64,000 nt of DNA from Bacteroidia bacterium (GTDB lineage Bacteria; Bacteroidota; Bacteroidia; Flavobacteriales; Flavobacteriaceae), in contig JAUICK010000007.1 in assembly GCA_030427865.1 (NCBI GenBank), positions 76,831 to 140,830 on the forward strand, given 5' to 3'. Each line of letters starts with the position of its first letter. Position 1 is the stretch's first letter. The notes under the pieces were generated by a model, which saw nothing but the letters and a program-made list of their open reading frames with translations, ran no database searches and had not been told where the DNA came from. Shown in pieces: positions 24,348 through 63,808 of this stretch. The position numbers and the translations under genes are program-made.

Positions 24348-24375
24348 TGTCATTTCAAGCGAAGTCGAGAAATCT
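24348..24375 (+). repeat. REP-like palindromic repeat, intergenic copy
   Basis: TGTCATTTCAAGCGAAGTCGAGAAATCT is 26/28 identical to the copy inside kmo (51744-51771). Confidence 0.75.
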
Positions 24376-36531: not shown

Positions 36532-36537
36532 ATATTT

Positions 36538-36602
36538 CAATGCGAGAAACAAAGCAATCTCTTTGCGATAAATTCAGATTGCTTCATTACATTCGCAATG
36601 AC
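36538..36602. repeat. Inverted pair of REP-like units
   Basis: TGCGAG..AAGCAATCT ... AGATTGCTT..TTCGCAATGAC. Confidence 0.65.
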
Positions 36603-41420: not shown

Positions 41421-41557
41421 GTTTTTAGAAGCCATTTCCAGCTTTCGCTACTCGCTTTTTTTAGTTTGTTCTCGATACAAATTTGTTCATTCTTCTCAAA
41501 TTCACTCGAACAGACACTAAAAAAGAGCTCAAACAGACCGCTCAATCTGGGCTAAAC
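41421..41557 (-). repeat. Structured interspersed repeat (possible Flavo-1 RNA), copy 1, with nested REP at 41468-41515
   Basis: Arms match the copies at 46163 and 51259; the central loop is expanded to ~60 nt. Confidence 0.8.
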
Positions 41558-50685: not shown

Positions 50686-51206
50686 TTATTTTGTTGCTAA
50701 TTCTAATAATTTTAGAGTTGTATTATAATTTCTTGTGGTTGCTGTTACATTCAATTTTCTTTCAAATAAATTATTAGAAAGTTTGGTTTTCGCAAAGGTT
50801 GATGGACAATAGAGATAAATCAAATCATCAACTATTTTATATGCGTCATCTCCAACATTTTTTATTTCTATTTTTGTATTTGTGGGTATATTGTCTAAAA
50901 AAATAAATGCTACTATTTTCTCGTTTTCTATTGAAAAAGGATAATTCTCAATCGCTTTTTTCCATTCTAAAATTGTTTTAGCAATCACTGGAACAGTATA
51001 TCCAAATCTATTTAAAATTTCTTGTTTTATTTTCTTACAAATTACTGATTTACTTTCCTCAGCATCTAAAATGATATTCCCACTTTGAATATAAGTTTGT
51101 ACATTTTGAAAACCCAAATTGTATAATAAACTACGTAAATCTGCCATAGGTAATTTGTTTTCCCAGAGACATTTATGCCACGTAATAAAACAATGTATTT
51201 TCTCAT
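50686..51206 (-). pseudogene. DUF1697 family gene with a 1-nt frameshift
   Basis: MRKYIVLLRGINVSGK from the ATG at 51206 is out of frame with NKLPMADLRS..YIQSGN; one A missing at 51158-51161. Confidence 0.8.
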
Positions 51207-51258
51207 TTATTTAAACTTTCTATTTCTTATTTAATAAATTAATGGTTTTTATAAATAA

Positions 51259-51348
51259 GGTTTAGCCCTGATTGAAGCATTTGTTTGAGCTCTTTTTTCT
51301 TTTCAGAAAAAAAGCGAGTGCGGAAAGCAGGATTAGCTTCAAAAAAAA
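51259..51348 (+). repeat. Structured interspersed repeat (possible Flavo-1 RNA), copy 3
   Basis: Near-identical arms to copy 2 with a different 8-nt loop; abuts the kmo stop codon. Confidence 0.85.
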
Positions 51349-52773
51349 TTACAATCCAGCTATTTTATCTTCCCTTAAAATATCTTCTGTTTCTTCTTTT
51401 ACTTTGTTCAAAACAATTTTTAGTTCTTTTTTGGTCATTTCTAATGATGTTGAAATGTCTTTATCAGCAATTAAATTCAACAACGCTTTGTCTTGGGCTC
51501 TACCTCTTTTCATTGCTTCATTATACCCTATTTCTTCATTAAAAGTGACTAATGAATATTTTGAAAAATACTGATTTGGAAAATGCTTTTCTAAATCCAT
51601 TTCAAGTTGCCTTTTTTCTTTAAACAAAGGATTTGCAACGTGATCTCGCATTTCGTAAAAATTATCAATTGCCAAATCTGCAATGGCGTCAGTGTCTTTT
51701 TTTCTTGCTTTTTCATAAGCTTTAAAAACAGTTTCCCAATCAAAGATTTCTCGACTGCGCTCGAAATGACACAAAACCTCATCAAAAACTACTACATCTT
51801 CAAAAGAAGCATTCATTCCTTGTCCGTAAAAAGGAACAATGGCGTGAGCAGCATCTCCCATTAACAAGGTTTTCTTTTGATAAGACCAAGGACTGCATTT
51901 TACAGTTCCTAAAGCTCCAGTTGGATTGTTGGTAAACTCTTCTTTTATATTAGGAATCAATGCCAAAGCATCTGGAAATTCTTTCTCGAAAAACTCGGTT
52001 ATTTTTTCTTCGGATGTTAAATTTTCGAAATTAAATTCGCCTTCATCATAACTCAAAAAGAGTGTTACTGTAAAACTTCCATCTATATTTGGTAAAGCAA
52101 TTAGCATAAAATCGCCACGAGGCCAAATGTGTAAATGGTCTTTACTTATTTGATGATTTCCATTTTTATCTGCTGGAATTTCCAGCTCTTTATATCCGTG
52201 ATTTAAATAATTTTGAGCATAACTAAATAAGAATTTACGTTCTGAAATATAACTTTTACGTAACGATGAACCTGCTCCATCTGTTCCGAAAATAACATCT
52301 GCTTTTACTTTAAATTTCTTACCAGTTTCATAACTTTTAAAATGAGCTACTTTGTTTTCTATGTCTACTTTTTTACATCCACTATTAAAATGAATGTTTA
52401 CATTTTTGTGCTTTTCTGCCTCATCTAATAAAATGGCATTTAAATTGCCTCTTGAAATGGAATTGATATATTCTCCTGTTCTACCTGAATAGTTCGAAGC
52501 AAATGTATTTCCTACTCTGTCATGCATTAATCTTCCATACATGGGTATGCAGATTTCTCTGACTTTTTCTTCCACTCCACATAAACGCAAGGCTTTTAAA
52601 CCTCTATCTGACAATGCTAAATTGATGCTTCTTCCAGCAGAAATATCTACTTTACGTAAATCGGGTCTGCTTTCATATACCTCTACTTTATAACCTCTTT
52701 GTGCTAAACGTAAAGCTAAAAGCGAACCACAAAGTCCAGCTCCAATGATTACTATTTTATCGTTTTTATTCAT
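51349..52773 (-). CDS. kmo: Kynurenine 3-monooxygenase
   Basis: IIGAGLCG, GRSINLALSDRG, HIWPRG..MLIALPN.DGSFT, GDAAHAIVPFYGQGMN. Confidence 0.96.
   Translation of the reverse strand: MNKNDKIVIIGAGLCGSLLALRLAQRGYKVEVYESRPDLRKVDISAGRSINLALSDRGLKALRLCGVEEKVREICIPMYGRLMHDRVGNTFASNYSGRTGEYINSISRGNLNAILLDEAEKHKNVNIHFNSGCKKVDIENKVAHFKSYETGKKFKVKADVIFGTDGAGSSLRKSYISERKFLFSYAQNYLNHGYKELEIPADKNGNHQISKDHLHIWPRGDFMLIALPNIDGSFTVTLFLSYDEGEFNFENLTSEEKITEFFEKEFPDALALIPNIKEEFTNNPTGALGTVKCSPWSYQKKTLLMGDAAHAIVPFYGQGMNASFEDVVVFDEVLCHFERSREIFDWETVFKAYEKARKKDTDAIADLAIDNFYEMRDHVANPLFKEKRQLEMDLEKHFPNQYFSKYSLVTFNEEIGYNEAMKRGRAQDKALLNLIADKDISTSLEMTKKELKIVLNKVKEETEDILREDKIAGL
51744..51771 (-). repeat. REP-like repeat translated in-frame inside kmo (CHFERSREI)
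   Basis: TGTCATTTCGAGCGCAGTCGAGAAATCT, codons 335-343; 26/28 identical to 24348-24375. Confidence 0.8.
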
Positions 52774-52789
52774 TTTTTATTATTTGAAA

Positions 52790-52822
52790 AGACCTCAAAG
52801 GTTTTAAAAACCTTTGAGGTCT
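52790..52822. repeat. Perfect palindrome between kynU and kmo
   Basis: AGACCTCAAAGGTTTT-A-AAAACCTTTGAGGTCT, 16-bp arms. Confidence 0.9.
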
Positions 52823-54080
52823 AAACTAACGTTTTTAAGACTTTTACCATTCTAAACACATCCTCAAAAGAATTATACATTGGCACAGGAGCACAACGTA
52901 TAACATCTGGCTCTCTCCAATCTGTAATCACATTGTTTTGGGTTAGTTTTTTGTGTAAATTTTTGTCGGCATTTTTTACTTGAATGGATAATTGGCAACC
53001 TCTTTCTTTTGGATTTTTTGGTGTGATGATTTTGATGTCATTAGAACCAATTTCGTTGATTAAAAACTCAAAATAACCCGTTAGTTTTTCTGATTTTTCT
53101 CTTAAAGCTTCCATACCAACCTCATCAAATAAATCTAAAGCCGCTTTAATAGCTGCCATAGATAATATTGGTGGATTAGACAGTTGCCAACCTTCTGCAC
53201 CTTGCATAACATCAAAAGGTTGTCTCATATTAAAACGTGTTTCTTTATTATGATTCCACCAACCTGCAAAACGTGGTAAGTCTTTATTTTTTGAATGTTT
53301 TTCGTGCACAAATAATCCTGCCAAACTTCCTGGACCAGAATTGAGATATTTGTAGGTACACCAAGCAGCAAAATCTACACCAGATTCATGTAAATTAGGT
53401 TGAATATTTCCTGCTCCATGAGCCAAATCTATTCCAACTACACAATTTTTTGAATGCCCGATTTCTGCAATCCTTTTTAAATCTAAAAACTGACCTGTAT
53501 AATAATTTACACCGCCAATTAGCAACAATGCAATTTCATCTCCTTGTTCTTCAACAATGACTTCTAAATCTTTTATATTCAGTAATTCTTCTCCTTTTCT
53601 TGGTTTCCACTCAATGACATCATCCTCAGAAAAACCATGAAATTTTAGTTGTGATTGTACTGCATATCTATCTGAAGGAAAAGCATCCGACTCAATAACT
53701 ATTTTATATTTGGTTTTGGTTGGTCTGTAAAAACTTACCATTAACAAATGTAAATTTGTGGTGAGCGTATTCATTACCACAACTTCAATTGGTTTTGCAC
53801 CTACTATTTTTGCCATTTTATCGGTTAAATACTCGTGGTAATTTACCCAAGGATTTTTTGCTTCAAAATGACCTTCTACACCAAAATTTGCCCAATCTTC
53901 TAATTCTTGATGGATATACTCTTTAGTTGATTTTGGTTGTAAACCCAGAGAATTCCCTGTAAAATATAACCAGTCTTTTCCATTTTTATCTTTTGGAATA
54001 AGAAATCGATTTCGTAAATGAGAAAGTTTATCTGCTGCGTCTAACTGTTTGGCGAATGTTAACGAATTTTGATATTGCAT
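52821..54080 (-). CDS. kynU: Kynureninase
   Basis: YFTGNSLGLQP, MNTLTTNLH, DLAHGAGN, WCTYKYLNSGPG PLP lysine, WQLSNPP; -7 box TATCTTTG at 54104-54111. Confidence 0.97.
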   Translation of the reverse strand: MQYQNSLTFAKQLDAADKLSHLRNRFLIPKDKNGKDWLYFTGNSLGLQPKSTKEYIHQELEDWANFGVEGHFEAKNPWVNYHEYLTDKMAKIVGAKPIEVVVMNTLTTNLHLLMVSFYRPTKTKYKIVIESDAFPSDRYAVQSQLKFHGFSEDDVIEWKPRKGEELLNIKDLEVIVEEQGDEIALLLIGGVNYYTGQFLDLKRIAEIGHSKNCVVGIDLAHGAGNIQPNLHESGVDFAAWCTYKYLNSGPGSLAGLFVHEKHSKNKDLPRFAGWWNHNKETRFNMRQPFDVMQGAEGWQLSNPPILSMAAIKAALDLFDEVGMEALREKSEKLTGYFEFLINEIGSNDIKIITPKNPKERGCQLSIQVKNADKNLHKKLTQNNVITDWREPDVIRCAPVPMYNSFEDVFRMVKVLKTLV

Positions 54081-63579: not shown

Positions 63580-63655
63580 TATGTGCTAAACTTTTAAAAG
63601 AATTTAAAAATACACTTTTAGCTGGATATTAAACATTAAAGCTTATAAATATGTT

Positions 63656-63808
63656 GCGTTAAGGATTGAAATGGAAATCCTTTTTATGCTGAATTTGATT
63701 GTACATCTCTTAAACTAAATTCACTTCCTATTAAAAAAAACAAAAGAGTTAAAATAATTTTTTGCATAAAAAGATTGTAATGGAAAGCCTGACCTGAAAG
63801 GTAACGCC
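63656..63808 (+). repeat. Related structured repeat variant (possible Flavo-1 RNA), copy 4
   Basis: GCGTTA..GATTGAAATGGAAATCCTTTTTATGC-loop-GCATAAAAAGATTGTAATGGAAAGCC..TAACGC. Confidence 0.65.

Follow-up and report, generated by a model that had tools for sequence, protein, structure and literature searches.

A TGTC-tagged hairpin repeat translated within the kynurenine 3-monooxygenase gene of Polaribacter

Background

REP/REPIN elements carry a GTAG tag and have as their partner RAYT, a Y1 HUH transposase. The subject here is a different small repeat, a TGTC-tagged hairpin, one copy of which (copy 1) lies in frame within the kynurenine 3-monooxygenase (KMO) gene of a 64,000-nt stretch of Flavobacteriaceae DNA, hereafter called the window (GenBank assembly GCA_030427865.1, contig JAUICK010000007.1, positions 76,831 to 140,830). 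It is highly probable that copy 1 belongs to a dispersed repeat family, that it represents a derived, in-frame insertion into KMO, that alleles with and without it have been shuffled among lineages, and that its DNA is still constrained, the last point being inferred from its conservation.

Among the closest described repeats are those of the CGTC-tagged REP superfamily (Di Nocera, De Gregorio and Rocco 2013, BMC Genomics 14:522; PMC3733652). Its members begin with the tag CGTC, or TGTC in many repeats, followed by an 8-9-bp stem whose first two pairs are A-T and T-A, a loop of 4-5 nt, and an unpaired three-nt tail with the consensus CCA. Inverted dimers are common, no transposase is known, and no dedicated enzyme was found. 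The superfamily spans five phyla, including the Bacteroidetes, and takes in Rickettsia RPE-4 and RPE-6 (RPE, Rickettsia palindromic element) as well as Neisseria dRS3. Copies are mostly intergenic, with intragenic REPs present in several species; neither Polaribacter nor KMO is mentioned. RPE-1 is described in the same paper as consisting of "longer palindromic insertions".

An enzyme that acts on such hairpins has since been reported (Chenal et al. 2025, Nat Commun 16:2388; PMC11893778). Small single-domain GIY-YIG nucleases, the Ssn proteins (cd10448), recognize hairpins of the dRS3/NTS type (NTS being CGTCATTCCCGCGMAVGCGGGAATCYRG) in single-stranded DNA and cleave them, and the repeats lie on both sides of the nuclease genes. 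Bacteroidota and intragenic copies are not discussed in that work.

A repeat copy translated within KMO

The KMO gene occupies positions 51349 to 52773 of the minus strand and is an open reading frame (ORF) of 474 residues. A 28-base copy of the dispersed hairpin repeat is translated inside it, in sense orientation: the minus strand of 51744-51771 reads TGTCATTTCGAGCGCAGTCGAGAAATCT, encodes residues C335 to I343 (CHFERSREI), and agrees exactly with a 26-mer of the widespread repeat. Another copy, at 24348-24375 on the plus strand, is intergenic: it follows a PASTA-domain gene by 44 nt and precedes a pseudouridine synthase gene by 23 nt. It is identical to copy 1 at 26 of 28 bases, a match that did not arise in any of 100 dinucleotide shuffles. 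With R1, a covariance model of the repeat family, copy 1 scores 48.3 bits (E = 4e-8) and the intergenic copy 45.3 bits (E = 1.7e-7); these are the only significant R1 matches in the window. The GC content of copy 1 is 46%, whereas the gene as a whole has 32% and the window 30%; in 30-nt windows over the element it rises to 50%. The element also carries the sole CGC codon of the KMO gene. The original prediction, which was made from the sequence alone, had claimed this GC-rich island in an AT-rich gene, the match between the two copies, and the preserved reading frame, and all are confirmed.

The assignment of the host gene draws on both full-length similarity to solved KMOs and pathway context. 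The window protein matches the rat, human, and Pseudomonas KMO structures in the PDB at E = 1.5e-89 to 2.3e-83 (6lkd, 1.5e-89; 5x68, 8.5e-87; Pseudomonas KMO, 2.3e-83), and it contains the Pfam domain FAD_binding_3. The kynureninase gene (52821-54080) is adjacent, upstream of KMO, and genes for DUF1697 and RidA proteins complete the flanks. The window KMO belongs to Polaribacter.

Comparison with other KMOs indicates how the peptide arose. Among 120 KMOs with at least 82% identity, 75 have a short loop at this site (L-NQDLGD-W), 42 have a long loop (L-CHFERSREIFD-W and variants), and 3 have a loop that is longer still. In all of 150 representative KMOs (38-60% identity), and likewise in metagenome loci (67-80% identity), the loop is close to the short length and the peptide is missing, as the original prediction had anticipated for distant orthologues, and alignment with the rat and human enzymes leaves a 5-residue gap at the site. 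Because distant KMOs have the short loop, the alignments show the long loop to be a derived insertion with a net gain of 5 residues (15 nt). The element encodes nine residues, but the protein has grown by five and not by nine.

An AlphaFold2 model of the window KMO (mean pLDDT 80.5) contains a helix of residues 318-339, a loop of residues 340-345, and a second helix of residues 346-378. The insert is modelled with a pLDDT of 85-91, and its residues 335-339 close the first helix while residues 340-345 fall in the connecting loop. Given this layout, the insert would extend one helix and make the loop to the next. The model therefore places copy 1 at a predicted helix end and surface loop, consistent with the position after the GQGMN..FED helix that had been proposed for it.

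Conservation of copy 1 at the DNA level

Six KMO genes were compared at copy 1, those of the window and of loci L125, L205, L206, L207, and L208, a sample that includes three isolate genomes. The same 29 nt are present in all six of these diverged lineages. At positions where the amino acids are identical, codon identity is 9/9 within the element in all 15 pairs of genes, compared with 0.62-0.70 elsewhere. Of 1378 windows of 27 nt, the element alone has no variable site (the mean is 9.7 variable sites), and it is the sole invariant run of 14 nt or more across the six genes. Even strongly conserved motifs such as GQGMNASFED fall below the element in DNA conservation. Identity stops at the edges of the element: the codons just upstream read GAG GTT TTG, GAA ATT CTT, GAA ATA CTT, or GAA GTT CTT, and codons a few positions downstream also differ among the six lineages.

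Because all 27-29 nt, with every synonymous site and the rare codons of high GC content, stay the same in genes that differ widely elsewhere, we infer that copy 1 is still under constraint as DNA or as a single-stranded DNA or RNA element. The cause would be either purifying selection on the nucleic-acid element or homogenization against other copies of the repeat. The most likely reasons for a frozen copy 1 would then be that it serves as a recognition site for the partner protein of the repeat or that the other copies serve to homogenize it. A recent sweep by recombination is a less likely cause of the invariance.

Alleles and history of the KMO loop

The insertion is not private to the window genome but is an old polymorphic allele found in many Polaribacter and Tenacibaculum, among which the long and short forms are distributed patchily. 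In a tree of 200 KMOs, built after removal of indel columns, 199 proteins could be scored for the state of the loop. The long allele is present in 52 of these, about a quarter, and at least 20 changes between long and short are needed. Strongly supported sister pairs with opposite states include P0001/P0002, L148/L162, L174/L177, and P0066/L147. L148 and L162 are near-identical over 6 kb save for short divergent patches, one of which consists of the indel and about 75 nt downstream. Since these two loci differ in short patches that include the indel, the alignment shows that short-tract homologous recombination swaps two old alleles, long and short. A similar search for a recombination patch between the window and L204 was uninformative, given a divergence of about 10% throughout.

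Among long alleles, the DNA of the element is perfect at one extreme, in the window and L125, and strongly decayed at the other, in L132. L126 and P0060 have the long form less exactly 15 nt, and in three KMOs (the P0025 type), 27 nt (CCTTTCGACAAGCTCAAGACTGGTTCC) stand in place of the loop bases CGC, forming a nested second repeat. This nested, long-loop subtype also flanks a GIY-YIG gene within the L201 genome. Most long-form variants that have diverged still retain the F-E core of the peptide.

These alleles show the following history. A copy of the element came to lie in frame between two helices of the FAD-binding domain of KMO in some ancestor belonging to the Polaribacter/Tenacibaculum clade. 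It is translated as CHFERSREI and tolerated, because five of the six frames of the element are open (four if the variable base is T). After this origin, the element decayed in some lineages, lost 15 nt in others, or gained a nested repeat.

The same inter-helix loop holds an unrelated insert of 7 residues in L182-L187 and L198 (HLSNGKLD, QLPNGKLD, or KLPNGKTD). The DNA of the HLSNGKLD-type insert in L182 contains a small inverted repeat, CTTTC-AAATG-GAAAG.

A second copy within KMO

KMO contains a second, decayed copy of the element (copy 2) at 51433-51459, which lies on the plus strand and thus runs antisense to the gene. The encoded residues are D439 to T447 (DISTSLEMT), a peptide that fits the opposite-strand frame of the element, DFSTxLEMT. 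The original prediction had proposed a search for peptides of the DFSTALEMT type, and such a peptide is indeed present, in the very gene under study, as a copy that the prediction itself had missed. The gene-strand DNA of copy 2 in the window is GACATTTCAACATCATTAGAAATGACC; its synonymous sites have drifted to A/T, and the peptide has been kept. In other genomes, the corresponding codons are clear family members with a compensated stem (L201, TGTCATATCGAGCGAAGTCGAGATGTC; L202, TGTCATGTTGAGCGCAGTCGAAACATC), and those of L121, with an ATATT/AATAT stem, also belong to the family. The outgroups L192 and L171 are about 5 residues shorter at this site. In the structural model, copy 2 forms a C-terminal loop (residues 437-447) between helices 417-436 and 448-473. 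A second copy thus entered the C-terminal loop on the opposite strand and, in the window genome, lives on solely as protein sequence.

Architecture and spread of the repeat family

The repeat has a TGTC tag and a 5-bp stem of the form A-NNNN / N'N'N'N'-T, whose arms enclose 12 conserved loop nt, GAGCGNAGTCGA; a C-T tail follows. When the four inner stem positions were left free, a pattern search found eleven more stem types, every one fully complementary around the same loop, among them ACCTC/GAGGT, ACCTT/AAGGT, ATTCC/GGAAT, ATCCC/GGGAT, and ATGTC/GACAT. The exceptions were one match with a G-T wobble (L087, ATTTC/GGAAT) and one paired at 3 of 5 positions (L083). A second copy in L148, in which the stem aligns poorly, was not matched by this pattern and was not part of the covariation set. 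In an alignment of 17 diverse copies, the 5-bp stem is paired in 100% of cells and 4 of the 5 pairs vary on both sides, a covariation score that was reached by 0 of 500 shuffles; in slid registers, only 27-64% of cells are paired. The first stem pair is A-T in 17/17 copies and the second is T-A in 10/17. Within the tag, G2, T3, and C4 are invariant in these copies and T1 is present in at least 90%; all of 127 exact copies that were fetched have GTC, mostly preceded by T or C. Nearly every copy has C as the first base of its tail, followed by T (sometimes C) and then a variable base.

The name "palindromic repeat", under which the element was first predicted, is apt in one respect only: a repeat it is, but the strong palindrome has given way to a weak hairpin in which the 5-bp stem alone is supported. 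Folding of the element by itself yields -1.5 kcal/mol (z = 0.7), no better than shuffles, which rules out the idea of a strong hairpin, and no longer stem was found. A hairpin scan that required arms of 6 nt did not detect the family, as its stem has only 5 bp. The loop core, GCGNAG(T/C), e.g. at window positions 51752-51760, resembles d(GCGAAGC), an unusually stable DNA mini-hairpin. If the loop core behaves in the same way, the element as single-stranded DNA may be more structured than the folding program says.

The repeat is multicopy and widespread. A scan of one genome per species with the 26-mer GTCATTTCRAGCGNAGTCGAGAAATC found exact matches in at least 120 genome stretches from at least seven phyla, by record title, with unrelated flanks. 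Among the matches listed are Clostridia, Christensenellaceae, Dialister (Negativicutes), Bacteroidales, Pontibacter (Cytophagales), and Salinibacter; the Flavobacteriales Polaribacter, Gillisia, Flavobacterium, Lutibacter, and Flagellimonas; and members of the Chloroflexota (Thermomicrobiales, Dehalococcoidia), Planctomycetota, Spirochaetota (Treponema), and Verrucomicrobiota (Udaeobacter). Many exact matches have an inverted partner 20-50 nt away. Within 543 kb of Polaribacter-type KMO loci, model R1 identified 40 family members, many of them in inverted pairs (L143, L144, L206, L201, L125), so the multicopy nature that the original prediction required of the repeat is well borne out. A literature search with the letters of the element found no paper. 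In four loci from other phyla (L001, L086, L091, L097), tandem partial copies (GTCATTTCGAGC plus 10-15 nt, with a period of 21-26 nt) precede the full element; these stuttered copies look as if copying had restarted several times.

KMO is one of several proteins into which the element is written. Among the 127 exact copies, in-frame copies occur in six other Pfam-confirmed proteins: peptidase M3, HisA, an AMP-binding enzyme (Lutibacter), MetRS, a GH3 glycosidase, and UDP-GlcNAc 2-epimerase. The HisA of Polaribacter sp. MF5-112 (L016:1100-1260) contains an in-frame inverted pair, translated as VISSAVEKS ... DLSTALKVT, which cuts the Pfam His_biosynth match into two stretches. A stem variant is in frame in an SDR gene of P. 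batillariae (L201:10849-10874), where it is translated as CQFERSREQ. An exact element is also in frame (VISSAVEKS) in an ORF of 1043 residues in Polaribacter sp. WD7 (L066:4612-4637), whose product, from its sequence, reads like a type IIG restriction-modification enzyme.

Association with a small GIY-YIG nuclease gene

In L125, L181, L201, and L202, a gene for a GIY-YIG protein of about 100 residues lies directly after the KMO stop codon, between inverted copies of the family whose TGTC tags point outward. Just 1-4 nt separate the 5' copy from the ATG of this gene, and the stop codon overlaps the 3' copy (L125, L201, L202). CP071795.1 holds an example of the gene next to KMO. The protein matches Pfam GIY-YIG (E = 9.7e-20), and the solved structures nearest to the Polaribacter nuclease are the UPF0213 proteins BH0048 and EF2693; a search of NCBIfam gave no useful name. 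In a Dehalococcoidia locus (L028), inverted copies likewise bracket a GIY-YIG gene.

The unit of repeat, GIY-YIG gene, and inverted repeat is about 390 bp long and lies between the KMO stop and the start of the DUF1697 gene (L125:4405-4800, L181:4405-4802, L201:7450-7860, L202:1775-2170). The empty site, TAA followed directly by ATG, is found at L204:3927-3932, L206:4423-4428, and L207:2525-2530. This is a presence/absence polymorphism of the kind expected of a mobile cassette. In the window (51204-51348) and in P. septentrionalilitoris (L208:4426-4570), the junction is instead occupied by a structured repeat of about 90 bp. Since it can hold either this repeat or the GIY-YIG unit, the KMO-DUF1697 junction is a place where small repeats of two kinds or more have landed.

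A general nuclease neighbourhood for the element was considered and rejected, as a GIY-YIG ORF is present in just 2 of 120 loci fetched by the element. Because of this low fraction, the link to the nuclease is local, in the form of a cassette plus scattered orphan copies. Among the loci examined, there is no clean correlation between a nuclease gene beside KMO and a perfect copy in KMO. L125 and L201 fit such a relationship. In L205-L208, however, the copy is perfect and no nuclease gene adjoins KMO, and in L137 and L147 the allele is short although the nuclease gene, or fragments of it, is present. A partner protein encoded in the genome of the window is hypothetical.

Further copies in the window

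Two weaker relatives of the element are present elsewhere in the window, both on the minus strand. After dnaK, at 36577-36602, there is a variant with a TTGC/GCAA stem, GTCATTGCGAATGTAATGAAGCAATC, which shares the architecture only and is a weak match, with 7 mismatches to the main consensus. Its degenerate inverted partner lies at about 36537-36561, and the inverted pair therefore spans 36537-36602. A decayed copy at 41491-41515 is nested in the loop of another repeat of about 90 bp; it matches the consensus at 19 of 24 positions and is not significant with R1. Curated Rfam models gave no match at copy 1 at the gathering threshold and none at E <= 1 around position 24348. The Rfam Flavo-1 RNA motif (RF01705) is present at 63653-63798 on the plus strand (47.3 bits; gathering score 42).

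Alternative explanations

Several results weigh against the reading given at the outset. The six genes in which copy 1 is invariant were picked because they share CHFERSREI; nonsynonymous sites were thus fixed by design, and about nine synonymous sites carry the test. The 17 copies in the covariation alignment were picked by hand, with L083 (paired 3/5) and L087 (wobble) omitted, and the KMO tree is a FastTree tree. Alone, the element is a weak hairpin, and its 12-nt loop, GAGCGNAGTCGA, is not the 4-5-nt loop of CGTC REPs. The published pattern for Ssn-related motifs (SRM), HGTCWYN(0-2)YYVSBRHN(0-5)WNVSBRGN(0-2)RNCYNB, fits an NTS example but 0 of 6 copies of the family, and nothing in the window; nor does the 64-kb window contain a GIY-YIG ORF. 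The drift of copy 2 at synonymous sites means that constraint on the DNA is not general. Finally, the net gain is 15 nt for an element of 26-28 nt. Plain insertion fails at the junctions, and a clean reading in which 26-28 nt were simply inserted is contradicted. Because of this difference, 12-15 nt of the old loop would have been replaced or later lost, taking the site from about 15 nt to about 30 nt.

Some of these points would be expected if copy 1 were a neutral fossil, that is, a single tolerated insertion whose DNA is unconstrained and whose perfect copies are a young allele recently spread between lineages by recombination. Alleles at the site are indeed exchanged in short recombination tracts, the element has decayed freely in many lineages, and both the drift of copy 2 and the weakness of the hairpin are as this explanation would have them. 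It is nevertheless unlikely, though it deserves to be taken seriously, since the identity ends at the edges of the element in all six lineages, the 29-nt element is the sole long invariant run of the gene, and it is unlikely that six separate tracts of recombination would all have ended at the borders of the same 29 nt. Selection might instead have acted on the protein, with the nine residues recruited for some function of KMO, such as stability or an interaction surface. The frequency of the long allele (52 of 199 scored KMOs), the retention of the F-E core in most diverged long forms, and the persistence of DISTSLEMT in copy 2 while its DNA drifts would agree with such a role. However, protein selection cannot hold synonymous sites and rare codons, the insert is missing from some very near relatives (P0002 at 91% identity; L162 as compared with L148), an unrelated insert, HLSNGKLD, occupies the same loop elsewhere, and the same element is found in many unrelated enzymes; an adaptive peptide is accordingly rather improbable. 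That the resemblance arose by chance, or that KMO was the source of the intergenic copies, is so improbable as to be negligible. Beyond the shortness of the element, nothing speaks for it, and it is at odds with the lack of any match among the shuffles, with outgroup KMOs that lack the element, and with exact 26-mers in at least seven phyla, mostly in genomes and contexts unrelated to KMO.

A translated copy of a dispersed repeat, probably constrained as nucleic acid, is thus preferred. A further proposal goes beyond it and is tentative, held with somewhat less than even confidence: the KMO copy may be a live site of a repeat system, in which nine codons carry two codes, and would be either read on single-stranded DNA by a partner that recognizes the hairpin or continually homogenized against other copies. 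The likely partner would be the small UPF0213/Ssn-like GIY-YIG nuclease that inverted copies bracket in related genomes. Among repeats with a nuclease partner, the family would then be a branch of its own, present in seven phyla or more and missed by the SRM motif.

Comparison with known repeat systems

With copy 1, marine Flavobacteria join Rickettsia and a few Proteobacteria as organisms in which tiny hairpin repeats have been written into enzymes as loop residues. The KMO locus is also a clean experiment of nature, in which a single loop exists as long, short, deleted, and nested alleles, copy 2 survives as a peptide only, and copy 1 has kept its DNA unchanged from one species to another. 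If this unchanged DNA is a recognition site for a GIY-YIG nuclease, protein evolution would be tied to Ssn-type repeat systems, and such systems would, if this is true, extend to a class of repeats outside the published motif.

The family resembles the Ssn-related motifs in being composed of hairpins that start with (C/T)GTCAT and are both dispersed and clustered near a nuclease gene, and in the order of repeat, small GIY-YIG gene, and inverted repeat in L125, L181, L201, L202, and L028. It departs from them in that the Polaribacter nuclease is nearest in structure to UPF0213 proteins and in the lack of a nuclease gene in the window. With REP/REPIN-RAYT systems, it shares short hairpins, a conserved unpaired tag, and inverted pairs that flank the gene for a partner enzyme; the tag, however, is TGTC and the neighbouring gene encodes a GIY-YIG nuclease.

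As in the Rickettsia palindromic elements, a dispersed repeat lies in frame and is translated in a loop, in a way compatible with an intact enzyme, and the segment is absent from orthologues. This parallel, drawn in the original prediction, proves closer than was claimed, for PMC3733652 places RPE-4 and RPE-6 within the CGTC/TGTC REP superfamily, which the element resembles; the likeness to these two elements is one of CGTC/TGTC architecture as described in that paper alone. RPE-1, in contrast, is much longer and belongs to obligate intracellular hosts of another phylum, and its description does not include a translated copy whose DNA is the same in different species.

In layout, the family resembles the CGTC REPs. 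Both have an unpaired (C/T)GTC tag, an A-T first stem pair, and an unpaired tail that starts with C, and in both there are head-to-head pairs, some in-frame copies in enzymes, and a distribution over several phyla that includes the Bacteroidetes. Apart from the loop, the KMO family differs in its stem, which has 5 co-varying bp rather than 8-9 bp, and in its tail, which is mostly C-T against the consensus CCA. In-frame insertion of REP-type repeats is already known, and what the KMO case adds is a new host group, a new enzyme, and a class of repeat that was not found described.

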